DNA of 64,000 bases from the NCBI GenBank assembly GCA_964016885.1, contig OZ024743.1:20212001-20276000 (forward strand), given 5' to 3'. The stretch comes from Eledone cirrhosa (taxonomy: Eukaryota). The translations under genes and the position numbers were made by a program. How positions within the stretch are numbered: position 1 is the first letter of the stretch; each line of letters opens with the position of its first letter. The notes under the pieces were generated by a model. That model was not told where the DNA came from, ran no database searches, and saw only the letters and a program-made list of their open reading frames with translations. This document shows, piece after piece, positions 1,086 to 44,459 of the stretch.

Positions 1086-1405
1086 CATCATCATCATCAT
1101 CATCATTTCATTTTACGTCCGCTTTTCTCTGCTTGCAAGAGTGTGATGGGAACTGATTCTGGCTTGATTTCTACAGCTGGATGCCCTTCCTAACACCAAC
1201 CTCATTTACAGTGAGTGTTGTGTGCTTTTTTGCCGTGGCACCTCCACGACCACTTTTCAGTCCCTATTATCTAATTTCTACAGCTGAGTAAACTGGAGCA
1301 ATGTGAAATAAAGTGTCTTGCTCAAGGAAACAACACATCACCCGGTCTGAGAATTGAACTCACAACCTTTAGATTGAAAGACCAATGCTCTAACCACTAA
1401 GCCAT
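1086..1405 (-). mobile_element. tRNA-derived CORE-type SINE with RTE-derived 3' tail and (GAT)n end
   Basis: Minus strand begins CATGGCTTAGTGGTTAGAGC (A box) ... GAGTTCAATTC (B box), has a CORE-like TCCTTGAGCAAGACACTT segment, and its tail matches the RTE 3' UTR at 44230-44460. Confidence 0.85.
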
Positions 1406-9490: not shown

Positions 9491-10129
9491 CTAAATAAAT
9501 ATACACACACATATTAATGTGTGTGTATATTTATTTGTCTCATCTCTCACCTTCTTTTCTCTCTGCATTCAGCATGGCCAGAAGTGATATTTGATTATGT
9601 TCTGCATAAATAGAGATTCCCCTCTTCAGTGGTTAGACATGTGAAGCTGTTTTCCTTAATGACACTGTGTAACAAACAAATTTTTTTTCTCTGTCCCTGC
9701 CTTGTAATCACTTTTTTGTGTTGCTTAGGTCCCAAATAAATAAAAGTGCTATTAATCAGTTAAAAGTTTGGGTTTGTAAAAATTCTAAGCTATTCACTAT
9801 AATTATTTGTATGCTGGACTTTAAGTTGTATGTAAGTTTAATTTGCTTATGTTAAATGATTTTTTTATATATGTTTCAGGTTAAATTACAATTATAAAAT
9901 AAAGAGTAATAGCTAAAGAAAATGATAAAAGTGCAATAAAGTATAAAATTGTTATTAAGTGGATTAAAGAGATTTATTGATACTGGATTTTCGCACCCTG
10001 AATAAAGAGTAAGTGGTGTTTTAAGCACAAATTTTCATTAGTATGATTAGTGTTCTTTTATATTATTTAAATATGTATTTCCCTTTCCAATATTTATTTT
10101 GTATTGCATATCAAATTTATTTTCCAAGA

Positions 10130-11360
10130 CAAGTATTCTGATGAAGAGGAGGAGATGGATGCAGAGGACCTGGATTACCTGCCTGAGGTACCAGAAAAAG
10201 TTCCTCACTTCCCAAACCCAAAAGAAGTCAATGGGTCTAACCAAGTCCAATGCAGAGCTATTCGTCTCCAGGATGAAGCAGTGGAACATGGTCAAGGAGG
10301 AAGTGCAGGTGACAAGTCAGAGAAGTCGACACAAACCTTTCTCGGGCTTTTACTCTCTTAGGGATGGCCTCTGCTTCTGCCATGGCGTGCCTGGACTGTT
10401 TGACCTTATTGGGGTGCCGTTTGTGTCCAAGGAGTGGCGGCTATTTATAGACAGCTCCACCACAAGTTTGAAGGCTGTCCTCCTCCACAATGGAAACAAG
10501 TTTCCGACACTGCCCCTAGCTCATTCAGTCTGCCTGAAGGAAGATTACTACAGTGTGAAAGTCCTCTTGGAAGCTCTGTAATACAACCAGTACAATTGGG
10601 AAATCGTTGGCGACTTCAAGATGGTGGCTTTCCTGATTGGACTCCAAGGAGGCTTTATCAAATTCCAATGCTTCCTCTGCCTTTGGGAGAGCAGAACCAC
10701 CTCTGACCACTACATAAGAAAGAACTGGGAGCAGCGAACAGAATTTGTAGTTGGGACCTGGAACGTCATGTGGGAGCCACTGGTTGATCCCAGGATTGTG
10801 CTCATGCCACCACTGCACATTAAGTTGAGGTTGATGAAGCAGTTTGTGAAGGCTCTCAACCAAGAATCAGCCGTTTATAAGTACCTTCTTGAGTTCTTCC
10901 CCAAGTTATCTGAGGCCAAAATCAAAGGTGGAATTTTTGTTGGACCTCAGTTAAAGAAGGTGTTTGAGTCTACCGAGTTCTCCAATAAGCTCCATAGGAT
11001 TGAGAGAACAGCATGTAACTGTTTCAAGGCAGTTGTTAAGGGCTTCCAGGGCAACTACAGAGCTGAAAACTACCAGCAACTGGTGCAGGATCTGATAAAG
11101 GCTTTTGGCGCCATGTGATGCAGGATGTTGCTTAAACTCCATATGCTGGATGCTCACCTGGAAAAATTCAAGGACAATATGGGCGCCTACTCAGAAGAAC
11201 AAGGCAAACGATTCCACCAAGATGTGAAAGAGATAGAACGGAGGTACCAGGGCCACTACAATAAAAAAATGATGGGGGACTATATCTGGGGGCTAGTGCA
11301 AGAATGCGACCTGGACTACAACCGCAAATCCAGGTTCCAGTCATTTCTGACGTGTATAAG
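10130..11360 (+). pseudogene. Chapaev3-like transposase with in-frame stops
   Basis: Motifs WRLFIDSS..SLKAVLLHNGN, GDFKMVAFLIGLQGG..CFLCLW, PPLHIKL.LMKQFVKAL, KLHMLDAHL, GAYSEEQG.RFHQD across ORFs 10099-10581, 10621-11118 and 11125-11415. Confidence 0.85.
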
Positions 11361-15630: not shown

Positions 15631-17335
15631 TCATCATCATCATCATCATCAACGTTTAACGTCCGTGTTCCACGCTTGCATGGGTTTGGACGGGGGTAGT
15701 CCCACTTGAGGCAAGAGTGATTGTCTTGCTCGCATAGGACTATCTGGCAGGTTTTCTACAGTTGGATGCCCTTCCTAACACCAACCACATTTACAGTGTG
15801 GGTCTGGGAGGTTTTTACCGTGTTGCCTACACGGCCACATTACAGTGTGGACTGTGTGTTTTTTTGTTGTGACACCTACACGATCTCATTTGTTTCGGCC
15901 TGGATGGCGCGGCACCAACATAACTTTACATAGAACGGGGTGGTGTGGATGGGGTGGGGGTGGTGGTGGTGGGACGGGGTGTATTTTGTTAGAGATGCCT
16001 ACTGGCTGGAGTAGGTTTTACTATATATTTAGGTAAGGCGGGTCTTCTCTGTTACTGAGTACCGCCAAAGGTCTCGGTCCAGTGACATTGTCTTGGAGAG
16101 GTGTAAGTGTGTGATGTCGGAGTTTATCAGCTCGTCCCAGGTTTTTCTAGGTCTGCCTATTCCGTGACTACCGTCTATCTTTATTGCCCTGCACTTTGTT
16201 ATACAGCTATCGACTTTCATGTGCATCACGTGTCCATACCAACGTAGCCTTCTCTCGAGTAAACAACATCTGATCCCTCTTATCTCTAATTTTTTCCTTA
16301 GTTCGTTTATGCTTTGCCGTTCACGTATATTACTGTTACACATCCAGCGGAGCATGCAAGCTTCGTTCCTCTCTAGTCTGCGTATATCCTCTGCACACAA
16401 TGCCCAGGTCTCACTGCCATGCAGCATTGCTGTTCGTATGCAGGCATCGTACAACCTGCCTTTCATTTTTAGGGAGAACCCTTTAGCAGCTAATAGTGGT
16501 ATAAGCTCTCTGAACTTTTTCCAACCAGTTCTGACTCTAGCTACAGTACTTTCAGAGCACCCTCCCCCACTGCTGATTTTATCGCCCAGGTAACGGAAGC
16601 TGTCCACTATTTCTATAGAACCCTCTGCGCAATTGAAAGAGCTAGTATTTTGTGGGCACTTGCTGCTACTTATTGCACCAGAACACCGGCCACATGTAAA
16701 ATCTATGTTCTTAGTTAGCTTACCTGTGATCCCACTACATCTTTTATGCACCCATACTTTGCATTTAGGACATAAAATGGAGTTTCTACCTATGCCTTTC
16801 CTACACACCGAGCACGACCATTTCCCAGAAGGGATCGCCGCCTTGTTTTCTTTCCTACAAACTAGAACTTTGGTCTTAGCCAGGTTAATTTTAAGTCCTT
16901 TTGACTCTAGGCCGTGCTTCCATGTTTGGAATTTCTTCTCTAGCTCGGCCATTGATTCTGCTATGAGTGTCAGGTCGTCTGCATATAGGAGTTCCCATGG
17001 GCAGCCTGTCTTGAACTCCTCTGTTATAGCCTGAAGGGCAATAATAAATAGTAGGGGGCTGAGAACAGAGCCCTGATGGACGCCAACTTTTACGCTAAAC
17101 TCTTCACTATATTCGTTGTTAATTCTAACCTTGCTGACTGTTTCTTTATACATGGCTTGTATAGCCCTCACAAGCCATTCGTCAACGCCTAGTTTTCTAA
17201 GAGCCCACCAGATAATGGAGCGGGGGACTCTGTCGAAGGCTTTCTCCAAGTCGACAAAAGCTAAGTAGAGGGGTTTACCTTTAGCTAGGTACTTCTCCTG
17301 TAGTTGTCGTACTATGAAAAGAGCGTCTGTGGTAC
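15631..17335 (-). mobile_element. Young 5'-truncated RTE LINE (family A) with open RT and PHD-like finger
   Basis: ORF 16029-17249 (406 aa, reading frame extends upstream): DLEKAFDRV, GVHQGSVLSP, LLYADD, C4HC3 cluster, FRYLG, HGSETW, RRLRWYGHV; 3' UTR ends in (GAT)n. Confidence 0.95.
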
Positions 17336-17389
17336 TTTATATATACATATATATATGTATATGTGTGTGTGTATATATATATATATTAG

Positions 17390-19920: not shown

Positions 19921-19977
19921 GTGTGTGTGTGTGTATATATATATATATGTATATATATATATAAATATATATGTATA

Positions 19978-20010
<33 letters not shown>

Positions 20011-20106
20011 TAGAAAATATATAGCTTTCACCGTATTTTTAACTAAAGGAATTTTAGCTTGATAACGGGGTTTAGAACCCTCAGATAAAGAGGAAAAGAT
20101 GAGTAT

Positions 20107-20177
20107 TGACGTACATGGGAGTCGAACCCACATCTGTGGTTATCGCGACCACTGTGCTACCATTACAGCAACACATC
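20107..20177 (-). ncRNA. tRNA-like cloverleaf (copy 1)
   Basis: Reverse complement of 20576-20646. Confidence 0.75.
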
Positions 20178-20575
20178 TCCCATCTCTTTCCATTCAAATT
20201 AGAAACTACATTCTTGGCGAGTTTAAATAGCAAGTAAGTATGTTTTGAAACAGTGAGCGAGTTTGAAATTAGAAAATATATAGCTTTCACCGTATTTTTA
20301 ACTAAAGGAATTTTAGCTTGATAATGGGGTTTAGAACCCTCAGATAAATGGAAAAAGATGAGTATTGACGTACATGGGAGTCGAACCCACATCTGTGGTT
20401 ATCGCGACCACTTATCTGAGGGTTCTAAACCCCGTTATCAAGCTAAAATTCCTTTAGTTAAAAATACGGTGAAAGCTATATATTTTCTAATTTCAAACTC
20501 GCTCAGTTTCAAAACATACTTGCTATTTAAACTCGCCAAGAATGTAGTTTCTAATTTGAATGGAAAGAGATGGGT

Positions 20576-20646
20576 GATGTGTTGCTGTAATGGTAGCACA
20601 GTGGTCGCGATAACCACAGATGTGGGTTCGACTCCCATGTACGTCA
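20576..20646 (+). ncRNA. tRNA-like cloverleaf (copy 2)
   Basis: GATGTGT TG CTGT AATGGTA GCAC A GTGGT CGCGATA ACCAC AGAT GTGGG TTCGACT CCCAT GTACGTC A; one D-stem mismatch; T5 run about 10 nt downstream. Confidence 0.75.
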
Positions 20647-20773
20647 ATACTCATCTTTTTCCATTTATCTGAGGGTTCTAAACCCCGTTATCAAGCTAAA
20701 ATTCCTTTAGTTAAAAATACGGTGAAAGCTATATATTTTCTAATTTCAAACTCGCTCACTGTTTCAAAACATA

Positions 20774-23402
20774 TTTAGCAGTATTAGTTATTATTGTAGT
20801 CGCCACTTTAACAGAGTAGATGATTGAAGGTCGTTAGTTGCCAGTGTGGTAAGTGATAGTATCCTCGTTGGATTATCTTGTTGACATAGACGTGAGGGAA
20901 GGTCCCTCGATCTATTTACCATCTATTTACAATATTCCTTTCGTCAGGTCGCCAATTCCAGCAGCATTGATTATAGATGTTATTGAGACACGAGTAACAT
21001 AATAATGATTTCAACAGCAGTAATTAGAAATGAAATGTTTGTTTATTTATATGGTTGAAGTTACAGATAAAAAGAGGCGAGGCTAGGGTGCAAATCTCAC
21101 CGTTACATTATGCGTGTTGCTGGCTTGAAGTTTCCGGTACAAGAGAGATTCTTCAAATCTTCGCGGGGAATTTTTTCCTCCGGGCGCGTAGGGATACATC
21201 CTCTTCCACTGGCGCTGATTGGCTGAACTGAGCCAAATCACGCACAGAGAATGTATGTGAGCCCGCGGAATGTAGGTCACTACATCACCTCCGACCAGAT
21301 TTTCAGCCGAAAATCGATAACGAAGAAACCAAGGACCCACATATTATTGAATCAGCAAGAACAAATGCTGAAAGAACACATCAGTGAAAAAATAATTGAG
21401 CAGAAAGATTCATGCAAGAACAAAAAAAAATTAGGCGCGACGGGCCGTGTTGAGCCACTGTCAAATGACTAGCTGTTTTGTAGTTTAAACGAGACCCTCA
21501 AGGGCCTACCAGAAAACAGATAAAGTCTGATATGGGAGAAGTTGCTGTTCTTGCATTAAATGTTAATGGTAAGCGTTGCACCAGTAGCTGTGAACGAAGC
21601 TATTATGGTAGTTTACCAGTGCTGGCGAGAAAATGATGGCCCCCAGATGTATTGTCGAATGTGCTGTGGAGCCAGGAAAAAATGGCTGGTTGCTTTTTGT
21701 AAAGAAAAAAAAAGGCAAGTTTAATCAGTAGGTGGGCTGCAGTGTAAATTCCATAATTCGGGCGAATCCACAGAAGTGGCTGAAATATCGACAAGTCCAG
21801 TTCAATTTGTTGCTTTCCCAGCGAGTCGGGCAAAAACAACAAGACGGATGGCCGTCATGGACGATCAGTGTGCAACGAGATGCGAAGCTGTTTGAGTTCA
21901 GCTGCAATTAGTATTCTCGTGTTGCGGTGCCTGTTTGAATCCAGTGGATTAAGCTCTGTGAGCTGCTAGCATGTGACAGCATCTCAACCAGGTGAAAAGG
22001 GACTCGCAGAAAATTACGTTTGAAGAACATATACCAAGAACAACATGTTGGTGTGTGATAAAAAAAATGTGTGCATATGCAGGCATGTAAAACAGCAAAG
22101 AATGTGAATGAACAAAAACCATTAGCAAGCAAATAGCAAAAGAGCACAAAACAAGTAAATGCATTCTACAAAGAAATATGTGAATGTAAGAATCTTATAA
22201 TTCAAAGTCAATCTAAGGGAGCAGAGAAATTGCCCAATAAGTTCAAAGTCAAATAGTTCACACATCACCAGTGTACAGACACTAGTTCTATCTGAAAACT
22301 GAAAAAGAAGTTTGTTAATGCCGTTAGGGGTTGGATGTATGGTGCTTTTGTGAGATTTCGTGGCCATCTTGTGTGGCATAAGGTTGTGTTGCTTATTGTT
22401 AAAGCAAAGTCAAAGAATCCTCTGTAGAGTAGCGGTCACCAAATATGGCAGACACGTCTGACGCCATAATGGTGCGAAAACTACTGTCTCAAATTCTGGC
22501 GGGGGGTTATGTAGCGGTTGTCTCCCAACCCCAATAGATGAACAACATCTAGACGGGAAGTAGAACCCTTTCTGTAACTTCCGGCAGAGCCCTATAAAAC
22601 GAATAGCCTTCGGCTCTCTCCCTCTCATTTGCCCTTCCGGCGCCTGGCCTTAGCCAGGCGTCTCGCGTTCGCCTGGCAATCAAAACGGTATCTACTAACT
22701 TTGCTTCATTCTATCAACTATACTGTTCTATCTATATCCATGATTGTTAATTAAATATTATACACACAAACCATGTCTCTTTGTTACATTCATACAACCC
22801 AGTATCTTCGCTATATTGGTAACCCTGACGTGATACGAACACGCAGCCGTTCATCACGTCGGGGTCACCACTTTAGCAGTATTAGTTATTATTGTAGTCG
22901 CCACTTTAACAGGGTAGATGATTGAAGGTCGTTAGTTGCCAGTGTGGTAAGTGATAGTATCCTCGTTGGATTATCTTGTTGACATAGACGTGAGGGAAGG
23001 TCCCTTGATCTATTTACAATATTCCTTTCGTCAGGTCGCCAATTCCAGCAGCATGGATTATAGATGTTATTGAGACACGAGTAACATAATAATGATTTCA
23101 ACAGCAGTAATTAGAGATGAAATGTTTGTTTATTTATATGGTTGAAGTTACAGATAAAAAGAGGTTACAAAAGGAAATGTGCCGTTAAGCCGGCGAGGCT
23201 AGGGTGCAAATCTCACCGTTACATTATGTGTGTTGCTAGCTTGAAGTTTCCGGTACAAGAGAGAGATTCTTCAAATCTTCGCGGGGAATTTCTTCCTCCG
23301 GGCGTGTAGGGATACATCCTCTTCCACTGGCGCTGATTGGCTGAACTGAGCCAAATCACGCACAGAGAATGTATGTGAGCCCGCGGAATGTAGGTCACTA
23401 CA
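20774..23402 (-). mobile_element. Non-autonomous LTR retroelement (Gypsy-like) with 4-bp TSD CATA
   Basis: Direct repeats 20774-21283 and 22872-23402 (minus strand TGTAG...CTAAA); PBS TGGTGACCCCGACGTGA complementary to tRNA-Trp; CATA at 20770-20773 and 23403-23406; no recognisable gag/pol ORF. Confidence 0.9.
22423..22848 (+). mobile_element. Second, unrelated LTR-like segment with its own extended tRNA-Trp PBS
   Basis: TGTAG start at 22423, CTATAAAA TATA-like box near 22592, ATTAAA near 22750, CTATA end at 22815, then TGGTAACCCTGACGTGATACGAACACGCAGCC. Confidence 0.6.
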
Positions 23403-23467
23403 CATACTTACTTGCTATTTAAACTCGCTAAGAATGTAGTTTCTAATTTAAATGGAAAGAGATGGGT

Positions 23468-23538
23468 GATGTGTTGGTGTAATGGTAGCACAGTGGTCGC
23501 GATAACCACAGATGTGGGTTCGACTCCCATGTACATCA
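23468..23538 (+). ncRNA. tRNA-like cloverleaf (copy 3, best paired)
   Basis: 7/4/5/5-bp stems, A box TGGTGTAATGG, B box GGTTCGACTCC, 7-nt loop CGCGATA with G33 and T37 (non-canonical), 4-nt variable loop, T5 terminator. Confidence 0.8.
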
Positions 23539-23675
23539 ATACTCATCTTTTTCCATTTATCTGAGGGCTCTAAACCCCGTTATCAAGCTAAAATTCCTTT
23601 AGTTAAAAATACGGTGAAAGCTATATATTTTCTAATTTCAAACTCGCTCACTGTTTCAAAACATACTTACTTGCC

Positions 23676-23740
<65 letters not shown>

Positions 23741-23835
23741 TAAAAATATATATGTATATATATATATACGTATATATATGAAAGACGTAAAATAAGAAAA
23801 TTTTAGAAATTAAAAATTAACTTACTAAAATTTTC

Positions 23836-23917
23836 ACTCCAACTAATTAGTTTCTGTAATGGGATAAATATAGTTACACAATGTAACTATCGAGAATTCA
23901 TTACGTCATCAGAGAGT
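23836..23917 (-). ncRNA. Type I hammerhead ribozyme (copy 1)
   Basis: ACTCT CTGATGA cGTAATG..CATTACa GAAAC TAATTA GTT GGAGT. Confidence 0.8.
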
Positions 23918-24333
23918 CTATTCTCAGCTAAGTTCCCAGACAATGCACGGACACTAGGAACCCATATAAAAATAATAATTCAGTGGATGTAGTAAGCACT
24001 GAAAAAATTCACTGCCTCTGGTCAGTAGTGGATTCTAAAGAATCAATCACGTGACACTGAGGTTAGTCAGTTAGGAGTGGGGTGGTATTATGACAAGAGC
24101 CTACTACTACTACTATGAATTAGCAGTAGATTTGGCAAGTTTGCTCAACAAATAATTTGGAGATAAATATAGAGAATTAATACATCTACCAACAGATGTA
24201 CACTAATACTAGTAAATATATAAGTTATGTCAAAGTACCTAGGTGGTTCAATGCAGGGGGATGCAGAACAATTATATGAAAGACGTAAAATAAGAAAATT
24301 TTAGAAATTAAAAATTAACTTACTAAAATTTTC

Positions 24334-24415
24334 ACTCCAACTAATTAGTTTCTGTAATGGGATAAATATAGTTACACAATGTAACTATCGAGAATTCATT
24401 ACGTCATCAGGGAGT
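24334..24415 (-). ncRNA. Type I hammerhead ribozyme (copy 2)
   Basis: Stem I ACTCC/GGAGT, core CTGATGA and GAAA, stem II extended by an ATAGTTACA/TGTAACTAT hairpin, palindromic stem III, GUU cleavage triplet. Confidence 0.85.
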
Positions 24416-24477
24416 CTATTCTCAGCTAAGTTCCCAGGCAATGTGCGGACACTAGGAACCCATATAAAAATAATAAC

Positions 24478-24741: not shown

Positions 24742-24745
<4 letters not shown>

Positions 24746-27700
24746 AAAAATTGAACGGGAACAAAACAGAGAGGCAGTACGAACAAAGGTTTATTAGTTT
24801 CACGCTCTTGAGAGTGGGGTGGTGGTGGGGAACGACGTTTCGGGCATAAGCCCTTCTTCAGGTGAAAAGTGTGTGGGAAGAGAGTTCCAAGGGTGTGTAG
24901 GGGAGTGGTGGAGAGACATAGAAAAAAGGGGGTGAGAGGAAACGGTACAAATGAAATTAAATATAAAAGCATAATAAAAATAAAAATAAACATGAAGTAA
25001 AACAGGTGGTGGAAGGGTATAGGGGTGGTGGCGGGTGGAGTGGGGAGAGGGAGGCGGGGTGTCTGAGCGGGGAGGGCTGAAGGTGGTGTGTGTGTGTGTA
25101 TGTGAAAGTAAGAGTTGGGGGAAGAACGGGGTTGCATGTTCAGGAAGAGGTGTGTGTGTCGGGGGGGGAGAGGATTCCGGAGGCTGAGTGCGTCAATATG
25201 TGGTGATATGGACGTGTGTGTGTGGTGTTTATGCGTGTGTGGATGTAGGTGGCATGTGGGAAAAAAATATTTTTTAGTGTATGTCAGTTGGTGAGTCCTT
25301 AAGGTAGTTCTGTAGAGGATGTGGTGGATGCTGGGTAATATCCTTGGGATCTGGTGGATTCTAGGGATCTATGTTCAATATGTCTAATCCGTGGTTGGTC
25401 GGAAGAGGGGAGATGTGGGGTGCGCACGCAACAGGAAGTGGTCAGAGGGTCAAGGCAGGAGGAGGGTTGTGTGTCTGTGTGTGCGGGGAGGTGGTCAGAG
25501 ATAAGGGCATAGCAGCAGTCGGGTAGGATGGTAAGTGAAGAAAGTCGGTGTGTCGGTGTGTGCGGAGGTGCGGCGGACAGGGGAGAGGATGGGTAGGTGT
25601 GAAAGTTGGAGTGAGGAGGGCGTGTGTGTGTATTAGTAGAAGTGTTAGTGGGATGTGTGTGTGTGTGAGAAAGGGTGTGGATGGAGCGGGGAGAGAAGGG
25701 TGTGGGGGCCGGTGGAGGGAGTGTAGTGTACTGGTGTGTGTGTGTGCGTGTTTGGATGAGTGTGTGTGTGTGGTGAAGGAGGTGTTAGTGGGTGTTAGTA
25801 TACTGGAGGTGGGGAAAGGGTTGAATGCAGGTGTGAGTGGGGGTCAGTGGTGGTAGGGTGTGTAGAGTGGGTGGTGTAAGTGGGTGTGTGCGTTCGTGTG
25901 CGTGAGGTCGGGGGTGTTAGTTGCGGGGTGGTGGGGTGAGGGTTAGTGGTGGTAGTAGGGTGTGTTAAGTGTGAGTGCGTGTATATATGTACCGGTGGGT
26001 GTGTGCGTGTGATAATGGGAGGGGGAGAAGAAGGGAGGGATGTTAGTATGTTAGTTGGCGAAGGGTGGTCGGGTGTGGGGTGGAAGTGTTAGTATTGTTA
26101 GTTGTGGGTGGGCGGTGAAAAGGAGGGGTGTGTTAGTGGTGTTAGCGGGGGATATGAGTGGGGGGAGGGGGGCGGTCGAAGGCTAAAGGAATAAGAGTGG
26201 AGAGTTCAGGCCGGGGGGAGTGTGGGTCTGTAGGGTGAAGATGGTTCGTTGTTCGACCCTGAGGAGAGTGGCGGGTGTTCCGTGACATTGGAGTAGGCCA
26301 CAGACTGTGAGGTAGTCTGCGGAATGTCCAGGGGCACCAAAGTGGCGGGCGATGGGGGAACTACTACCGAGACGAATATCTCGGAGGTGTTCGGTAAACC
26401 GGTCCGCCAGGCGACGTCCAGTCTGTCCGACGTAGGTTGCGCTGCACTCCGTGCAGCGAAGTCCGTAGACTGGGTTGGAGGAGGTGCAGCGGAAGGCGTG
26501 CCGGACAGAGCGAGAGTGGCCGTTGGGACCCTGGAAGATGGTGGTGTTGGTGATGTGGGGACAGGTTTTTGCAGCGGGGCCTGGAACAGGGAAGGGAACC
26601 AGGGGGGGTGAGGAGAGCATGGGTTGGGGGGTAGGGAGCTGTGGAGGGTGCGGAGATTGCGTGCGCGTTTGAAGGAGGGGAGTGGTGGGGCTGGGAAGAT
26701 GTGGGAGGTGGAGGGGTCGGACTGGAGGCGTTGGAAGAGGCGAAGGATGGTGCGATGGAGGGGTGGTAGGTGATAGGGAAGGGGAGACGGTGGGTGGGTG
26801 TGGGGTGAGGGTGGTGGAGCGGTGGACAGCACGGGTGCGGGTGAGAGCGGGGGGGGACCTCTGCGGATGAAATGGCTGACTAGGGAAAGGCCTGGGACTC
26901 AAAGTCAGCATCTCGGCTACAGAGGCGGCGGATCCTGAGGAGTTGGGAGTAGGGAATAGAGTGTTTAGTGTGTGTAGGGTGGGAAGAGGTGAAGTCGAGG
27001 TAGGAGTGGGAGTCGGTGGGTTTGAAGAAGGCGGAGGTGACGAGGGAGTGATGGGAGGGGTCGAAGGCGACGAAGATGTCTAAGAAGTGGATGGGTGGTG
27101 GAGATAGAGGAGGTGAAGTGGAGGGAGGGGTGGAAGGAGAGAAAGGAGTCGAGCTGTTCTCGGGTGAGGGTCGTGGCTCCAATACAGTCGTCGATGTGAC
27201 AACCGTACAGTTCGGGCGTGGGGCCGATGTACTGGGAAAAGATTTGGGCCTCAACATGGCCAACAAAAAGGTTGGCATAGTTTGGGCCCATTCTTGTACC
27301 CATGGCTACCCCCGTGACCTGTTGGTAAAACTCACCCGAGAAGGAGAAACAGTTGAGGGTGAGGACCAGCTCGGCGAGGCGAAGGAGGGTGGGGTGGAGG
27401 GGATGGGGGAGGGGCGAAGGTCGAGGTAGTGCTTGAGGGCACGTAGGCCGTCGGCGTTGGGGATGACGGTATAGAGGGACTTGATATCTAGGGTGAAGAG
27501 GAAGGGCTGTGGGCCGGGTGGGTAGGTGAAGGAGTCGAAAAGACGCAGGGCGTGGTTGGTGTCGGAGATGTGGGAGGGGAGGGTGGTGACAAGGGGGGGG
27601 GAGCATGCAGTCAAGAAAGGCGGAGATGAGTTCGGTGGGGCAGTTGCAAGCGGAGACGATGGGGCGGCTGGGGTTGTCGGGTTTGTGGAGTTTGGGGAGG

Positions 27701-27846
27701 AAGTAGCTGGTGGGGGTGCGGGGGGTGCGGACGATCAGGTGGGAAGCGGCGTGGAGGATGAGGGAGGAGGAGACAAGGTGTTGGATGGTGGAGGAAACTT
27801 GTTATTGGTAGAGGGGTGTGGGATCGGAGGGTAGAGGGCGGTAGAA
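24742..27846 (-). mobile_element. Penelope-like element 1 (GC-rich, 5'-truncated, frameshifted RT plus C-terminal GIY-YIG)
   Basis: YFLPKLHKPDNPSRPIVS, FTLDIKSLYT, GVAMGTRMGP, HIDD, FKPTDSHSYL; endonuclease VYGLRCTEC..YVGQTGRRL.DRF.EH..GLN; long 3' UTR with HHR and AATAAA; (TA)n on both sides. Confidence 0.95.
24830..24864 (-). ncRNA. Minimal hammerhead motif in the PLE 3' UTR
   Basis: CTGAAGA AGGGCTTATGCCC GAAACGTC with palindromic ACGT stem III; stem I is weak. Confidence 0.75.
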
Positions 27847-28400: not shown

Positions 28401-29295
28401 CGAGGTGGGTCAGAAAAGTTCCAGGACTGATGTCACAAAATATTTATTTCAAACCCAAACTTCACACTAAGAGTTTTCTCCTTCAAAGTAATCCCCCTGG
28501 GGTATGTAACTGAATCTTAGCTCTCTGCAGTGATCAAACTTTTTTCTTCATAATGTTATATACATGTTCTCTGTTTCAGGTTGTCAAGCAATGAGCACAG
28601 AGCAATGAACAAACTTGAAAACTCCATCAGGAGCACTGGGATTGCTGCAGCAAGTGTATGGAGTTGAGATGATGTCATGCTCACGTGTTTTTGAGTGGTG
28701 CAAGAGGTTTAATGAAGGACACGAGGACGTGGAAGATGACCCCAGGAGCGAAAGGCCCTCAACAACCAGGACTGAGGTCAACATTGAGCGCGTCGGGCAG
28801 ATGGTGCGTAGCAATCGTCGGCTTACTGTTCGACTGATGGCAAATGAGCTGGGCATGAATCAGGACAGCATCTGGAAGATTCTCACTGAAGATTTGGATA
28901 TGCGGAAAGTCTGCGCGAAGATGGTGCCAAAACTGCTGAACGATGACCAGAAGAGTCGATGCATGCAAGTGTGCCAGGACATCCTCGAGCACCTTGAAAC
29001 CGAACCAGACTTGCTAGGGACAGTCATCACCGGTGATGAGTCATGGATCTTTGAGTACGACCCGGATGGGACCCGTTTTGAAGAAGTGGACAACATCAAA
29101 AAGGCTGTGGCGATGGAACTGCGGAGGATCCTGAAAGAATCCTTCCAGGGGTGCATGCAAGCATAGCAGAAAAGGATGGAAAAGTGCATTAGACTCCAGG
29201 GGAATTACTTTGAAGGAGAAAACTCTTAGTGTGAAGTTTGGGTTTGAAATAAATCTTTTGTGACATCAGTCCTGGAACTTTTCTGACCTACCTCA
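28401..29295 (+). mobile_element. Internally deleted mariner with about 100-bp TIRs and TA TSD
   Basis: ORF 28615-29166: HTH, RSERPST, KMVPKLL, ITGDESWIFEYDP fused directly to GTRFEEVD; 28401-28500 is inverted at 29196-29295. Confidence 0.92.
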
Positions 29296-34596: not shown

Positions 34597-35873
34597 TCAT
34601 CATCATCATCATCACCGTTTTACGTCCGTTCTTCCACGCTAGCATGGGTTAGACGGGTTGTCCTGTTGTGTGCAGTGTTTGGTCGGCTGACCATGCCTTG
34701 CTCATACAGGAACTGATCTGGCTTGATTTCTACAGCTGGATGCCCTTCCTAACACCAACCTCATTTACAGTGAGTGCTGGGTGCTTTTTCGTGGCGCCTA
34801 CACGTCCACTTTACAGTGTGGGCTGGGTGCTTTTTTGCCGTGGCACCTCCACGACCACCTTGCGGTGGGGGGTGTGGGGGCATATTGTTTATATGCTTCA
34901 GCATGTACCCATGGGAGGTCGGGTACTCTGTATTACTGCGTGACGCCAGAAGTCACGGTCGTGTGTCATTGTCTTTGAGAGGTGTAATTGGGTAAGGTCG
35001 GCTTTTATCACCTCATCCCAGTTCATCTTGGGTCTCCCCCACTCCGCGGTTTCCATCAACTTCTAGTGCTCTGCACCTTTTTATGCAGCTGTCATCCTTC
35101 ATACGCATCACATGTGCATACCAGCGTAACCGCCTCTCCTGCATGCAGCATTTGATTCCTCTTATGCTCAGTCTCTCTCTCAATTCCTTTATGCTTTGTC
35201 GTTCACGTATATTACTGTTACACATCCATCGGAGCATGCAGGCTTCGTTTCTCTCTAATCTACGTAAGTCTTCCACCTTCAGCGCCCAGGTCTCGCTACC
35301 ATGCAACATCGCTGTTCGGATACACGCATCATACAGTCTGCCTTTCATTCTTAGGGAGAAGCCTTTTGCAGCTAGCAGTGGTAGTAGTTCCCTAAACTTC
35401 TTCCATCCTGTTCTTACCCTAGTTATTGTACTTTCTGAGCACCCACCTCCGTTGCTAATTCGGTCACCTAGGTAGCAGAAGCTGTCTACTGTTTCTACAG
35501 GGCCCTCCCAGAGATTGGTGGTACTTGTTTCCTGTGGCTGTTTGCTTGCTGTTTCAGCACAGCTGCTGCATGTGAATCCTACATTCTTAATTAAGCTTCC
35601 TGAGATCCCGCTACATCTCTTGTGTACCCATTGTTTGCATTTGGGGCAGAGAATGGAGTTCCTACCTACACCTTTCCTACATACTGAGCAAGGCCATTTC
35701 CCTGAGGGGATCTGGGTTCTGTTTTCTCGTCTACTTACAAGGACCTTAGTCTTTGTCATGTTGACTTTGAGGCCCTTTCTCTCTAGTCCCTGCTTCCAAG
35801 TTTGGAATTTATTCTCTAGTTCTACCATAGATTCAGCTATGAGTGCGAGGTCATCAGCATACAGGAGTTCCCA
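34597..35873 (-). mobile_element. Young 5'-truncated RTE family A copy
   Basis: ORF 35013-35828 with PHD-like finger and thumb motifs; 3' UTR and (GAT)n tail. Confidence 0.93.
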
Positions 35874-36007
35874 TACCGAGGAATTTAGTATACAGGTTGG
35901 TATCTACCAGGGCTCTGTTCTTAGCCCTCTCCAGTTTATTATCGTATTGCAGGCTATGACAGAGGAGTTTAAGACCAGAGGCCCATTGGAACTTCTATAC
36001 ATGGATG

Positions 36008-37629: not shown

Positions 37630-37636
<7 letters not shown>

Positions 37637-40515
37637 ATGCTTTGGGAGGGTCATGTTGCCAATAAGAAACACACGCACCAGTTGCTTTCACTTCAATTTA
37701 TTATAAATTAAATTTATAAATTTAAGAATTTATAAATTTCTGGTTGGTTGGTTCCATAACCGGACGGTTATAATGCACGCAATTGCCGTCGCAGGTCGAT
37801 GAACAAAGAGAAGTACAATTTAGTATAGCTAGATCTAAACTTAGAAATATTATAGAACAGTATAGCAAGAAGCAAAATAGAATGGAGGCCCAGCAACTGG
37901 GAGAAAATCTGCAAATGGCTTGCGTAAGCTCATGCAGCGCTCACGTAATGGAGAGATTGCATGCTTTCCAACAGACAAGCTGGCAGAATGTCGGTTGACA
38001 GTCTGTCAAACTACATCCAGGCAATGCAACCTCACATCACTAACACAAGAGAGGTAACACCACAAGAGCATGAGGATAGGGAGAAAACCCTCAATGCCCA
38101 TATGATGATGTTGACAAACATAATGCAGCCCAATAAAAGGACTGCCAACAACTTCCAGACCTGGAACAATGACGTGCCAGTGTTGTATGGGCTTCGAAAA
38201 GACCATAAAACGAGCAGTGACCCTGTCACGGGACCACCAACATGGCCAGTCTGTGGAGCTAACATTGCTAATAACTACAGACTTTCCTACTTCCTCTCCC
38301 TGATCATATGCCCCATCATTGAAATGTCCCCAGATATATGTGACAGCACAGAGGACCTCCTCAGCAGAATCAGCGAAAATAACCGATCTAGGGACCTAAC
38401 AGACTGTATAATAGGTAGTATGGATGTTGTGTCCCTATATCCATCCATTGACGTGGATTTTGCTGTGGAGAAATGCGTAGAAATGATCAGTGAGAGCACT
38501 GTTAAATTCCGTGGGAGTGATACCAGTGAGCTGGGATTCCTACTTAAACTTACCTATAGTAATGATTATCTAGATACATATGACCTTAGCAACCTGTGCC
38601 CTACAAGACCAGCAAGAGGTAGACCACTTACCATTACCTCAATGGCCAAGAAAACCCACACAGAAAGATGGAACGGGTAGACCAGAGCCATACGGACCCC
38701 CGAAAACCACGATGAACTAAAGAAAATGATTGCATATGCGGGTGGGGCCAGTATAAAATTAACCCTTAAGGAACATATGTTCAAATTTAATGGAAAAACA
38801 TATGCCCAAGAGGAGGGAGCAGCCATTGGTGTTAGCATTGCAGGTGACATAGCTAACCTATTCATGGTATGGTGGGACAATAAACTTAAACTTAAAGAAC
38901 AATTAGAAGACAGCAACCTCTTAACCCTGATAATGTACTCCCACTACGTTGATAATATAAACATCGTAGTAAAAACACCCCCACTAGAGAACAGTCAGGA
39001 ATTAGAGAAAAACACCATGGAAAGCATCCAGCAAATAGCTAACTCCATCCACCAGAGTATTAGAGCTACTATAGACTACGCAAGCAAACACCCCAACCAT
39101 TGATTACCTGTACTAGACACAGAGCTCTGGTTAGAAACCATTAATAACAAAAAAACAAATCCTCCATTCTCATTATGCCAAACCCATGATTTCCAAATAT
39201 CTGATCCACCGAAACTCAGCTGTTTCGGATCACACCAAAATCAACATACTGATTGCGGATTTGGTATGGGTGATGAAAAACATGTCCCGCATGTGCAACC
39301 CCAAAGAACTAGAGAGACACATACAACACTTCATCCGCTGTATGCAGTTCTCTAGTTACAATCAGAGAGATAAAATCAGAGTATATAGAGGAGCCAGAAC
39401 CAAATGGGAAAAAATGGTAAATAATGATACAAATGGGACCTGCCCCTTGTAAAGGAGCAAATTTTGGAATAGAATAGAAAGAACTAGGAATAAGGTTAAT
39501 AGAATAAACTCATGGTATAAATACCAGCAATAAATACCAGAATGTAATGTTCATCAATACAACCCCTAGAAGTGAATTAGCTTACAAATTTAGAAGGGCC
39601 CTAGATAAACATAAACTTAATATTAAGATAGTAGAAAGACCAGGTACCTCCATAAAAACACTTATTAGCAATACATACCCTTTTCAAAGACCTCCCTGTA
39701 TAGATAAGAAATGCATAATCTGTAAACTAAGCCCCCATATTAACTGAAAAACTAGAAATGTAGTATATAGCATAAGATGTACTGAAGGACAATGTAAAGA
39801 TAAGAATATAGTGTACATAGGTGAGACAGCTCGTAGTATAGGAGACCGGTTAAATGAACACTGGCGAGAACTTCAAGATAAAAAAGAATCATCAATACTC
39901 CACCCACATGCTAAAATAGAACATAAGGGCAAATTAGAGAACATAAAAATAAAAATAGAATCTACACACAGAAAAGCCGCAATGTTTAGACAAATCACAG
40001 AGGCAATAAACATAAATTAACTCAAACCAAAATTAAATAGAAAAGATGAATGGAATAGCATCATCACAACTTAGAATTAAGGACAAAATAAAAACACACA
40101 CACACACATAGAACAAACAACCAACCAGTAACATGATAATAAACAAATAAATAAACAAATAAAAACACACACAGACACCCGGATGTAACACATGCGCAAA
40201 CTAAGCACACAACACACACAAAAACAAGATGGCGTAGGACAGAACAAAGGAGAGACACAAAAGAAAGAAAAGAATCCCCAGTCAATGAAGAGGTCACAGA
40301 ATGTGTGAGGAAAGAACTTTGACAATATATGAACAAACGTCCGGTTATGGAACCAACCAACCAGAAATTTATAAATTTAATTTATAATAAATTGGAGTTT
40401 TAGCAACTGGTGCATGTGTTTCTTATTGGCAACATGACCCTCCCAAAGCATAACAATATCGGTTTCAACACACGTTTTCAGATAAAGAATCTTGCTAAAC
40501 AAATTCAGAAACGTA
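37630..40515 (+). mobile_element. Penelope-like element 2 (AT-rich, RT plus C-terminal GIY-YIG) with inverted pseudo-LTR
   Basis: LYGLRKDHK, IIGSMDVVSLYPSI, YAQEEGAAIG, YVDNI, LPVLD, NVVYSIRC..YIGETARS.GDRLNEH, LNRKDEW; several stops and frameshifts; 37630-37766 is inverted at 40338-40459; flanked by (TA)n. Confidence 0.92.
40281..40323 (+). ncRNA. Degenerate mini-hammerhead in the PLE2 3' UTR
   Basis: GTCA aTGAAGA ggTCACA..TGTGAg GAAA GAACT T TGAC; stem I GTCA/TGAC; core C3 replaced by A. Confidence 0.55.
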
Positions 40516-40859: not shown

Positions 40860-43800
40860 TCTGGCAATCAAACCTCAACCCATTAGCACCAACAAACACT
40901 GCCACTACTGCTACTACCACTGAACTCCTAGCCCTTACCAGCCCCAACAAACTCTGCCATTACTACTGCTGTCCTTCTAGCCCTGCACTAATAATAATGA
41001 TTCCTTTACTGATATCTATGGATGAACTGAGAATCAATGGAACAACCCCGAATTAATAAATGAATATGAATCCGCAAGCTACCAAACACCCATGCAAAGC
41101 TTTAATCCAGAGACAGGAAGCATACACTCCCCACAAAAATTCAACCCATCCTACGAGTGATGGCAAATGTCCAAAACTCTGAGTTGGAACCATCAATGTA
41201 AGGACAATGAAAGGAAGAGCAGGAGAAATTGTAGAGATGCTAGAGTGAAAGGAAATTGATGTATGCTGTGTGCAAGAGACTAGGTGGAGAGGAGAGTCCG
41301 CTAGAGTCCTCGTAGGCAAAGTCAATGCTACAAATTTTTCTGGGTGGGAAATGACAACGGGATGGGAGGTGTAGGTATACTATTAGCTGACAAGTGGGTT
41401 GATAAGGGAATTCCAGTGAACAAGGTGAATGCAAGAATCATTAAACTCAGACTAGTCATGAATAAAACAATTGCCACAATAGTATCAGCTTAAGCACCCC
41501 ATTCGGGGATGCCAGACGAACTTAAGGATAGGTTTTAAGAGTCCCTAATGCACACTACTGCCCTAACAAATGACAATGACTTCCTAATCATTGCAGAAGA
41601 TTTTAACAGACACGTTGGTAAACACCGTGATGGCTTCTATAGAGTCCATGGAGGCCACGGGTTTGGCACAAGAAATGAAGAAGGCTTCAGGCTTTTGGAA
41701 TTTTACGATGCCAATGACATGTTGATATGTAACACAAACTTCAAAACACTAGATAACCATCTGATCACCTATAGATCAGGGGAGCATTCTAGTCAGATAT
41801 ATTTTATCCTCATCAGAGGGCGTGATAGATGGATGGTTGTAAACACAAAAGCCTTCCCTGGTGAGGAATGTACCTCCCAACATAACTTAGTTGTCAGCGA
41901 CCTCACTGTCAAAACTAGACAAACGTGGAAACAGAAGGCAACCTGGAGAAGAAAAATCTGGAAGCTGAAAAACCCCTCAGCCAGTAATGGATTTAAAGAT
42001 ATTCTACTCGACGCCTATGACAGTAAAGAAGAACAGATAGAGACATTCAATGTAGAAGGGCACTGACAGTTCCTAAAAAATAACTTGCTAAAGGCGACGG
42101 ACAAGATCTGTGGTTGGAGCAAGTCCACAGGGAGGAGGAGAGTGACTTGGTGGTGGAACAATAAGGTAGATGAGGCAGTTAAGGCTAAGAGACAGGCATG
42201 GAAAGAATGGAAGAACGGGGGTAGCAGGGTACATTACATAGAGACCAGGAGGGAAACTAGGTGACAAGTATACTTAGCTAGAAGGGAAGCAGAGGATAGA
42301 ATATTCAAGCATGTTTTGCAATGTGAGGACCAGAAATAGGTGTTCAAGATTGCGAGGCAGTGTGTCAGAGAGAATCGTGATGTCATTGGAGAGAAGTGTA
42401 TCCGGAATGATAACGGTGAGCTTGCCCTCACAAGTGCCGAGAAGAAAGCTGCGTGGAAGAGCCATTATTAAAAGATTACTAAACGAGGAGAATGCATGGG
42501 AAAAAGAGACCCTACCCCAAGCGGACCCTATAGAGGGGCCAGCAGTACAAGTCAACAGCAGCATAGTAAGGCAATAAAAGATATGAAGACAGGGAAGGCA
42601 ACCGGTCCATTGGGTGTAGCTGCCGAGATGCTGAAGGCATCTGGGTCAGTAGGTCCCACCATAACCACACAAATTGTTAACCAGGTAATACTAGAGGGTA
42701 TCATACCAAAGGATCAGTGCAGCACCATCATTGTCAACTGCTACAAAGGTAAAGGTGATGCACTAGATAGAGGAAACTATAGAGGTATAAAGCTGATGGA
42801 CCAGGTCATGAAAGTAATGGAAAGAGTTATAGCACAGTTGATTAGGGACTGGGGGAAACTAGATGAGGTGCAATTTGGGTTTGTACCAGCAAAAGGCACC
42901 ACTGATTCCCTCTTCCTTGTGAGGCAGTTACAGGAAAAGTACCTAGCTAAAGGTAAGCCGCTCTATCTGGCATTCGTCGATCTGGAAAAAGCCTTCGACA
43001 GAGTCCCCCATGCTATAATCTGGTGGGCTCTTAGAAAATTAGGAGTAGATGAATGGCTTGTGAAAGGTGTACAAGCCATGTATGATGAGCAGTCAGCAAA
43101 GTTAGGGTTAGCAATGACTATAGCGAGGAATTTGGCATACAGGTCGGTGTCCACCAGGGCTCTGTTCTTAGCCCTCTCCTGTTCATCATAGTTTTGCAGA
43201 CAATAACAGAGGAGTTTAAGACCGGATGCCCATGGGAACTCCTATATATCGATGATCTCGCACTTATAGCTGAATCTATGGTGGAACTAGAGAAGATATT
43301 CCAAACATGGAAGCAGGGACTAGAAAGAAAGGGTCTCAAAGTCAACCTGACAAAAACTAAGGTTCTTGTAAGTAGAGGAGAAAACAGAACCCAGATACCC
43401 TCAGGGGAATGGCCTTGCTCAGTATGTAGGAAAGGTGTAGGTAGGAACTCCATCCTCTGCCCCAAATGTAAACAATGGCTACACAAGAGATGTAGTGGGA
43501 TCTCAGGAAGCTTAACTAAGAATGTAGGCTTCATATGTAGCAGCTGTGCTGGGACAGCAAGCAGCATATGGCCACAGGAAACAAGCACCATCAAACTCTG
43601 GAAGGGCTCTGTAGAAACAGGAGACAGCTTCTGCTACTTAGGTGACCGAATCAGCAGCGGAGGTGGGTGTTCGGAAAGAACAATAACTAGGGTAAGAACA
43701 GGAGGGAAGAAGTTCAGGGAGCTACTGCCACTGCTAGCTGCAAAAGGCTTTTCTCTCAAAATGAAAGGCAGACTGTATGCGAACAGCGTGTATACGAACA

Positions 43801-44459
43801 GCAATGTTACATGGTAGTGAAACCTGGACGCTGTCTGTAGAAGACTTGCGCAGATTAGAAAGAAACAAAGCTTGCATGCTCCAATGGATGGTAATAGTAA
43901 TATTCACAAACGGCAATACTTAAACGAATTGAGAGTGAGACTGAGCATAAGAGGAATCAAATGCTGTGTGCAGGAGAGGAGGTTACGTTGGTATGGACAT
44001 GTAATGCAGCATAAAAAGGTGCAGAGCACTAGAAGTCGATGGAAGCCACAGAGTGGGGAGACCCAAGAATACCTGGGGTGAGGTGATAAAAGCTGACCTT
44101 ACCCAATTGCACCTCTCAAGGGCAATGACACATGATTGTGACCTCTGGCGTCATGCAGTAATACAGAAGACCCAACTTCCCACAGGAACAAGCCAAAGCT
44201 GAAGCATATAGACGATATGCCCCCACCTCTCCCACTGCAAAGTGGTCGTGGAGGTGCCACGGCCAAAAAGCACCCAGCCCACACGGTAAATGAGGTTGGT
44301 GTTAGGAAGGGCATCCAGCTGTAGAAATCAAGCCAGAATCAGTTCTTGTATGAGCAAGACAAGGTCAGCCGACTGGACACTGCCCACAACAGGACAACCC
44401 GTCTAATCCATGCTAGCGTGGAAGAACGGACATAAAACGGTGATGATGATGATGATGAT

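Follow-up and report, generated by a model that had tools for sequence, protein, structure and literature searches.

A dispersed, protein-less repeat of Eledone cirrhosa with a conserved tRNA mimic, very probably copied by a Penelope-like reverse transcriptase

The stretch of Eledone cirrhosa DNA analysed here (contig OZ024743.1, positions 20,212,001 to 20,276,000; 64,000 nucleotides, referred to as the window, in whose numbering coordinates are given) contains an insertion built from copies of a short unit with a monomer period of 259 nt, in which a sequence folding as a complete tRNA cloverleaf is embedded. The insertion lies between two (TA)n tracts (19934-20010 and 23676-23779) and consists of two joined arms, one inverted with 1.6 monomers and one forward with 2.5. 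Positions within the unit (u) are numbered from window 23402 on the plus strand, which places the first nucleotide of the tRNA, G1, at u67, A58 at u122 and A73 at u137. The inverted arm (20009-20412, minus strand) comprises u91-259 and u1-235, and it meets the forward arm at an inversion junction (20408-20412) where u91 is joined to u152 with short microhomology. The forward arm begins with an upstream part made of u152-259 and one monomer (20408-20773, plus strand) and ends with a terminal monomer (23403-23675, plus strand) whose tail is u236-274; the two were later split by an unrelated long terminal repeat (LTR) element of 2.6 kb (20774-23402, minus strand), which is outside the family. The outer end of the terminal monomer at u272-274 (23673-23675, plus strand) would mark a first start of reverse transcription, and the outer end of the inverted arm at u235 a second one. 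A preliminary description of this DNA had reported tandem and inverted units within (TA)n, and this holds for the inversion and for the (TA)n on both outer sides, except that the segment 20774-23402 is the separate LTR element.

Three complete cloverleaves are recognized in the window by the Rfam tRNA model (gathering score 29), of which the one in the terminal monomer (23468-23538, plus strand) scores 47.4 bits, and those in the middle forward monomer (20576-20646, plus strand) and in the inverted arm (20107-20177, minus strand) score 34 bits each. A C at position 10, carried by the copy of the inverted arm, breaks a D-stem pair in two of the three, and private changes at u28 and u76 are common to the middle monomer and the inverted arm. 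A cloverleaf had been ascribed to every unit; a whole tRNA is present in just three of the five unit pieces of the window. The best copy was re-read as it had been described, with stems of 7, 4, 5 and 5 bp, the U8-A14 and A15-U48 pairs, G18G19, TTCGA, a loop CGCGATA with G33 and T37, and a variable arm of 4 nt; its A58, the site of the inferred methyl block discussed below, is at 23523. The acceptor stem is prolonged, after a 3-nt bulge, by an extension stem of 18 bp that pairs u49-66 with u140-157 (5′ arm 23450-23467, 3′ arm 23541-23558, plus strand). The T5 run noticed about 10 nt after the tRNA is indeed present (23548-23552), and its place is within the 3′ arm of this extension stem.

The unit is dispersed and not restricted to one locus. 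Counted as exact 22-letter 3′-end motifs in the 3.0-Gb assembly, which gives lower bounds and counts some insertions twice, the family yields 1759 matches for subfamilies A and C together, 1433 for B and 174 for D, and control searches with the patterns reversed found 0 matches, compared with 103 and 1759, which speaks against chance. Subfamily D shares 65-72% identity with A over long alignments, and the unit with its tRNA part was also found in contigs under a different organism label (394 contigs, 341 of them less than 95% alike). The first 100 A/C matches represent 89 position-ordered insertions; inner ends were counted on such position-ordered 3′-end matches, earlier samples having been biased toward tRNA-bearing copies, and arms without a canonical outer end (17/150 in A/C, 12/109 in D and 3/52 in B) were left out. 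Only 26 of the 89 insertions retain a whole tRNA, and 58 have inverted arms. Outer ends of 150 A/C arms fall mainly at u268-274 (83), u235 (25) and u227 (14), giving two fixed ends about 37-39 nt apart that recur in B and D. In the inverted insertions, an end at u268-274 is paired with one at u222-242 in 44 of 58 cases, and in none do both ends lie at u268-274. A second monomer is entered by 24 of 133 A/C arms. (TA)n flanks at least one side of 85 insertions and both sides of 67, compared with 633 of 4450 background windows. The unit loci show neither an A-rich or simple-repeat tail (a library of long interspersed elements, LINEs, was not part of the search) nor an internal domain between LTRs, only arms in (TA)n. 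The geometry typical of Penelope-like elements (PLEs), read earlier from the one locus, recurs among the dispersed insertions. Two loci carry satellite-like expansions, with more than 20 monomers at L249 (G000:C1:131457500-131465500) and about 10 at L141. We considered these long arrays as products of rolling-circle copying and rejected the idea, as they are heterogeneous (33 variable columns among nine monomers of L141, and more than 20 units in L249, an old array) and resemble later expansion at the DNA level.

Several lines of evidence support constraint on the tRNA fold at the RNA level. With the extension stem included, the 113-nt region has a folding z of -5.85, and the 71-nt tRNA alone a z of -0.15. 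When D is set aside, columns with a minor letter of at least 5% number 3 of 71 in the tRNA (positions 33, 34 and 43) versus 37 of 135 in the flanks (p = 3e-5), and with D included 12 of 71 versus 59 of 135. Fixed changes in the stems convert 2:71 from A-U to G.U, 3:70 from U.G to C-G and 13:22 from U.G to U-A, and pair 27:43 reads U-A, G.A or G-C between subfamilies; the four fixed changes of D at these pairs retain pairing, and the anticodon loop varies freely. In D each arm of the extension stem is longer by 2 nt, giving 18-20 bp across subfamilies, and ensemble folding predicts that adding the 5′ extension arm raises acceptor pairing from 0.00-0.10 to 0.35-0.69 in eight of nine A/C copies. 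That the extension stem might hide the cloverleaf was also considered and had to be reversed, since its 5′ arm shifts the predicted folding of most A/C copies from a rod toward the acceptor stem. The A and B boxes are perfect and invariant in A-C, and D has a B box without A58; a T5 run is present in 50 of 58 A copies, and 23 of 29 D copies have T6 or more. In these counts of pairs, boxes and T runs the split between B and C is imperfect, many C copies standing in B, and only A, D and the remainder are reliable as classes. Conservation and pair-keeping changes, together with the A58-dependent stop described below, are the basis for constraint on the fold.

Judged from sequence, the mimic does not appear to be a decoding tRNA. 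The loops seen (CGCGATA, CTGGATA, CCGGATA and CCGGCAA) do not fit U33 and a purine at 37, positions 33-34 differ by subfamily, and the variable arm has only 4 nt. ARAGORN labels the mimic tRNA-Ser(CGA), an identity that had been doubted from the start and that these non-decoding loops speak against; the conserved stems likewise speak against a decayed tRNA gene. The D arm of the mimic is that of the genome's tRNA-Gln-type genes (isotype read from their CTG and TTG anticodons) minus one T, and the anticodon and T arms differ. A tandem cluster of about 20 such tRNA-Gln-type genes, with both anticodons and some damaged copies, lies at G000:C1:168211720-168275618.

Mobilisation by a PLE reverse transcriptase (RT) with two internal starts is very probable, as had been proposed, given the two fixed outer ends, the inverted arms, the (TA)n targets and two chimeras with a PLE that we call N1. 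In vitro, the RT of an anole PLE (Poseidon PAc) starts at two internal sites that bound a tail of 30-40 nt, and this element nicks AT-rich DNA on both strands, each of which it extends (PMC11167929); PLEs characteristically leave insertions in (TA)n that are inverted, partial-tandem and tailed (10.1101/2021.04.23.441226). Two autonomous PLE families are present in the window, each in (TA)n and each with a hammerhead core in its pseudo-LTR (pLTR). One is a truncated copy of a very abundant Neptune-type family (24742-27845, minus strand; hammerhead core near 24838-24861). The other is the abundant N1 (about 37633-40515, plus strand; also at L281 and L282), which has an inverted pLTR, a hammerhead core and intact open reading frames (ORFs) of 1227-1239 aa with an Asn/Thr-rich insert, and whose outer ends are about 60-75 nt apart, exceeding the usual 30-40-nt tail. 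It is assigned to the PLEs by RT motifs and C-terminal GIY-YIG-like motifs, both recognised by eye, by the pLTR and by the hammerhead core; Pfam gave no match for the 1227-aa ORF and one weak RT match for a fragment from the window. Chimeras with N1 were found at 2 of 214 unit loci (at L099 the unit arm continues collinearly as N1 from an AATGG common to both, and at L209 one arm is unit and the other N1) and with the Neptune type at none. N1 is the better candidate partner of the two and stays a candidate, because it is in any case far commoner near the unit than the Neptune type. The unit has no hammerhead core on either strand of four natural stretches of A, B and D, by a scan that was positive in both autonomous pLTRs, and no Rfam ribozyme match at E up to 1. 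It was also considered as the pLTR of an autonomous PLE; for N1 and the Neptune type this was rejected, the best matches having been distant family members.

A further feature of the family is where its arms end internally, which we read as the points where synthesis of complementary DNA (cDNA) ceased. 1-methyladenosine at tRNA position 58 (m1A58) blocks or miscodes reverse transcriptases. Of the A/C arms that reach u133, 57 of 103 end at u122-133, just 3′ of A58 (p = 2e-56; background hazard 0.003 per nt), a stop found in 39 of the 89 insertions; the deepest stops lie at u122, 122, 123 and 124, with none at u110-121 in the first round. Subfamily B behaves similarly (16 of 33 arms, with further ends at u121 and u113), whereas in D, which has T at position 58, the T54:58 pair reading T-T in 27 of 29 copies, the stop is seen in only 1 of 56 arms (Fisher 3e-13). 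Stop junctions are varied; most use a CATG/GTAC palindrome or microhomology of a TA-like kind. D retains CATG in 44 of 53 cases, and the palindrome alone would be insufficient, because just 2 of 44 arms stop near A58 when they traverse this sequence a second time. Two independent deletions (L083 and L108) end at A58. With about half of the arms stopping before A58 except in the subfamily with T58, a methyl mark set on the RNA by the host is likely preserved in these DNA copies; the stop is read most simply as a covalent block that some of the RNA molecules carry at A58, and m1A58 is probably the cause of the stop.

Smaller accumulations of inner ends lie elsewhere. In A/C they are at u58-75 (9 of 37 arms, p = 5e-5; left edge u58-61, 6-9 nt upstream of G1) and in the anticodon loop at u97-104 (5 of 44, p = 0.003), with no pile at u134-139 (1 of 103 arms). 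D shows a pile at u76-96 (15 of 46) that begins on its left side at nucleotide 10, the place expected with 1-methylguanosine at position 9 (m1G9), which we take as a lead only; at D loci L324-L393, ends at u76-91 are often paired (u76-80 with u87-90), and D-stem complementarity could join them. Second-pass arms pile up at u95-121 (22 of 42), for which we have no explanation. The tRNA had been suggested to act as a processing signal for host nucleases: that its fold matters at the RNA level is supported, and on release by RNase P at G1 and RNase Z after position 73 the ends are equivocal, some lying near G1 and many upstream of it, in a pile that reaches 6-9 nt before G1; a tRNA-less join of the two extension arms gave one match, itself an inversion junction.

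Taken together, we favour, with a probability of roughly 0.55, a protein-less family of about 259-276 nt that is copied into (TA)n by a PLE RT and whose RNA folds a tRNA mimic methylated at A58 by the host. Read-through of tandem copies would produce RNA longer than one unit, in which the stem of 18-20 bp would clamp a weak, G.U-rich acceptor stem. The PLE RT and endonuclease would nick both (TA)n strands and prime at the two internal sites. On molecules bearing m1A58, set by an activity of the TRMT6/61A type, the RT would stall and the two cDNA ends would join through the CATG/GTAC palindrome, leaving tRNA-less dead copies, and unmodified molecules would be read through into multi-monomer arms that renew the family. 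In its weakest step the scheme would have the mimic stand in for the hammerhead: it would not decode but would give the host's tRNA maturation machinery a hold on the RNA, for stability and end formation. We lean slightly toward the view that the RNA being replicated exceeds one unit in length and that the mimic works at the RNA level in the hammerhead's place, because the clamp needs sequence upstream of any RNA polymerase III (Pol III) start, because T5-T7 comes ahead of either RT start and D has spread while lacking A58, and because 28 of 37 A/C arms that reach u75 run on past u58. A bolder form, a ribozyme-free retrozyme whose circular or multimeric RNA would leave cutting and protection to the host tRNA pathway through the clamped mimic and be retroposed by a Penelope-type RT, is offered tentatively and seems rather unlikely. 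m1A58 is set on precursor tRNAs and shields tRNA-iMet from XRN2 in human cells (10.64898/2026.05.17.725798).

A number of observations weigh against the favoured reading. Most stops lie at u127-129, 5-7 nt short of A58, which requires the assumption that ends were trimmed to microhomology. The signal of misincorporation at A58 is weak: 5 of 138 loci are altered there, and the other tRNA adenines give 28 of 2070 (p = 0.05; changes to T or gap only, p = 0.01), in a test made per locus without D that replaced a pooled one (15/291 pieces) and dropped the A58 changes of L222, because long arrays reflect later DNA-level expansion. Subfamily D alters C59 as well as A58 and loses the T54-A58 pair; it is also older and may have used another RT. 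On the side of the fold, the clamp effect of the 5′ extension arm is mixed in B and D, pair 3:70 of D is C-G in only 16 of 29 copies and C.A in 6 of 29, and 27:43 is mostly a G.A mismatch in copies outside A and D. RNAalifold favours an alternative rod and finds no double-sided change. The A and B boxes of A-C, with ends 6-9 nt before G1, are as a Pol III start would give. As for the partner, N1 lies near the unit at 35 of 214 loci and the Neptune type at 6, making N1 about six times commoner there, and an nhmmer search of 945 kb of loci found no similarity of the unit to the pLTR of N1 or of the Neptune type, so that the suggestion of a pseudo-LTR fails for the two families tested.

Of the competing explanations, one retains PLE-driven copying and sees in the tRNA mainly an internal Pol III promoter, in effect the head of a short interspersed element on a PLE tail, comparable to Sm-alpha lacking its ribozyme; transcripts would begin 6-9 nt ahead of G1 and in some cases pass through T5. 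The invariant boxes and the pile at u58-75 with its left edge at u58-61 are what this would produce, and there are precedents in Helenus (PMC10886601) and Sm-alpha (PMC6765202). Yet T5 in A-C, or T6-T7 in D, follows 10 nt past A73 and upstream of both RT starts, most arms that get as far as u75 continue past u58, the extension stem, whose two arms change length together, requires that the RNA include u49 onward, and D spread with a T loop lacking A58. Moreover, a modified tRNA at the 5′ terminus would stop second-pass arms at A58, and few of them stop there. The promoter function put forward in the preliminary description is possible in A-C, where the perfect boxes and the ends upstream of G1 give it genuine support, and fits poorly with the terminator-like run directly after the tRNA and with D; as the main role of the tRNA we regard it as unlikely.

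The second alternative, a template in the form of a 259-nt circle, closed after a host cut in the mimic and copied by rolling-circle reverse transcription, strikes us as similarly doubtful. Multi-monomer arms are common (137 counted), with the caveat that 59 of them enter the upstream monomer by at most 60-75 nt and about 35 only by the overlap of the reference ends. One rare variant recurs in all four monomers of L248, and others in three of L117 and three of L129; L083 and L108 jump A58 in the first round and end at u127 and u136 in the second; and the pile in the anticodon loop might mark the cut. Set against this, variants in L002, L031 and L090 are tied to monomer position in both arms, for which a single circle would need later gene conversion, and rare variants are common to tandem neighbours in 10 of 185 cases versus 32 of 325 across arms (p = 0.09; the misaligned locus L232 supplies 11 of the 32). 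The long arrays, being heterogeneous, likewise do not look like products of a circle. The position-tied variants favour a linear multimer or later conversion.

It is less probable still that the stop owes nothing to a methyl group, the RT stalling instead at the tRNA elbow or at a bound protein, or the T loop being cut, with the elbow loosened in D. The changed C59 and the lost T54-A58 pair of D leave room for such a block or cut, D also loses G19-C56 in 10 of 29 copies, the majority position of the ends coincides with the boundary between T stem and acceptor, and the misincorporation signal is weak. The deepest ends in A/C nevertheless reach u122-124, and none of the first round falls at u110-121 (B has u121 and u113); the deletions of L083 and L108 both end at A58; and the all-or-none contrast between the first pass and the second agrees with a covalent mark borne by only some molecules. 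Finally, an ordinary LINE-driven tRNA SINE (short interspersed element), or decayed copies of a tRNA-Ser or tRNA-Gln gene, could account for the ARAGORN label and the Gln-like D arm and is hardly credible in view of the two fixed 3′ ends, the inverted arms and tandem units, the lack of an A-rich or simple-repeat tail, the anticodon and T arms unlike those of Gln-type genes, and stems that are conserved and not decayed.

Embedded, non-decoding tRNA mimics are known in longer RNAs from mascRNA and menRNA, which are single-locus modules of host long non-coding RNAs and not mobile as the unit is. SINE2 elements follow the rule that no Pol III terminator lies inside the body, whereas the unit has T5-T7 inside its body, two fixed 3′ ends and no A-rich tail. 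Among PLEs, Poseidon and related tailed insertions share with the unit two internal RT starts, an inverted 5′-truncated arm and AT-rich or (TA)n targets (PMC11167929; 10.1101/2021.04.23.441226), but they encode an RT and a GIY-YIG endonuclease and the unit encodes nothing. Non-LTR retrozymes resemble it as short non-coding units that occur as monomers, tandems and long arrays and depend on PLEs, and differ in that each has a type I hammerhead and kinship to a pLTR, where the unit has a clamped tRNA mimic and no hammerhead core (10.64898/2026.07.22.740005). MRC1 and other Chlamys elements are non-autonomous PLEs with head-to-tail copies in a clade for which the available part of the source reports no hammerhead; they generally share 3′ sequence with autonomous partners, and a tRNA module goes unmentioned in that part (10.1101/2021.04.23.441226). 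Schistosoma Sm-alpha is likewise a short tandem retroposon, apparently transcribed by Pol III, but a hammerhead frees its monomers, and the unit retains a full cloverleaf instead (PMC6765202). Helenus and TRIMp3 have a tRNA-like sequence within the repeat of a non-autonomous retroelement, with LTRs, a primer-binding site (PBS), a polypurine tract and duplications of 4-5 bp, and conserve mainly boxes A and B (PMC10886601), whereas the unit conserves the stems and the extension stem and has PLE-type geometry. By analogy, the unit is roughly to PLEs what Helenus is to LTR elements, except that conservation in the unit extends from the boxes to the stems.

The unit is very probably a non-autonomous PLE derivative, one with a conserved, clamped tRNA mimic and no hammerhead core. 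In the literature compared, which did not extend to Repbase, Dfam or subscription papers, the passengers of PLEs are hammerhead retrozymes or 3′-homologous derivatives, and none was found to be built on a conserved tRNA fold. With repeat databases outside the comparison, the family may be listed under some name already, as an unclassified SINE or a tRNA repeat; a paper on Octopus vulgaris repeats gives, in its available text, class totals only (PMC13282606), and earlier octopus tRNA retroposons are cited in PMC4758252. As a minimal template of 259 nt with two mapped starts, the unit makes recognition by a PLE RT and the building of inverted arms directly testable. The A58-dependent stop, with T58 as a natural control, suggests that the modification state of a tRNA fold shapes retroposon copies in a way that can be read from assemblies, and tRNA finders miscall such copies as tRNA-Ser(CGA). 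If the ribozyme-free retrozyme were true, its copies would form a fossil map of RNA modification in vivo, with m1A58 recorded in A-C, m1G9 perhaps in D, and either a cleavage or a mark within the anticodon loop.

The nested LTR element is itself multi-copy and without a long ORF. Its direct repeats of about 510-530 nt (20774-21284 and 22872-23402) have minus-strand ends TGT...AAA, and the 4-bp duplication CATA (20770-20773 and 23403-23406) flanks it, placing the insertion point between two unit monomers. Its PBS-like tract (22853-22870) is presumably complementary to tRNA-Trp. Within the element, the segment 22502-22870 includes about 330 nt that are absent from nine relatives and resembles a captured foreign LTR followed by a PBS, which continues into the T-loop region of the tRNA and folds back as a 17-bp hairpin; it is possibly a captured strong-stop cDNA. 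Just to the right of the insertion is a 204-nt direct repeat of 98% identity (23775-23978 and 24273-24476). Elsewhere in the window, fragments named by eye include RTE-like LINEs (16029-17336, 35013-35903 and 41539-43817), a mariner-like transposase (28609-29166) and another transposase-like fragment (10051-11118), and a partial tRNA match above the Rfam gathering score at 1347-1404 (minus strand), unrelated to the unit, is probably the head of a SINE.

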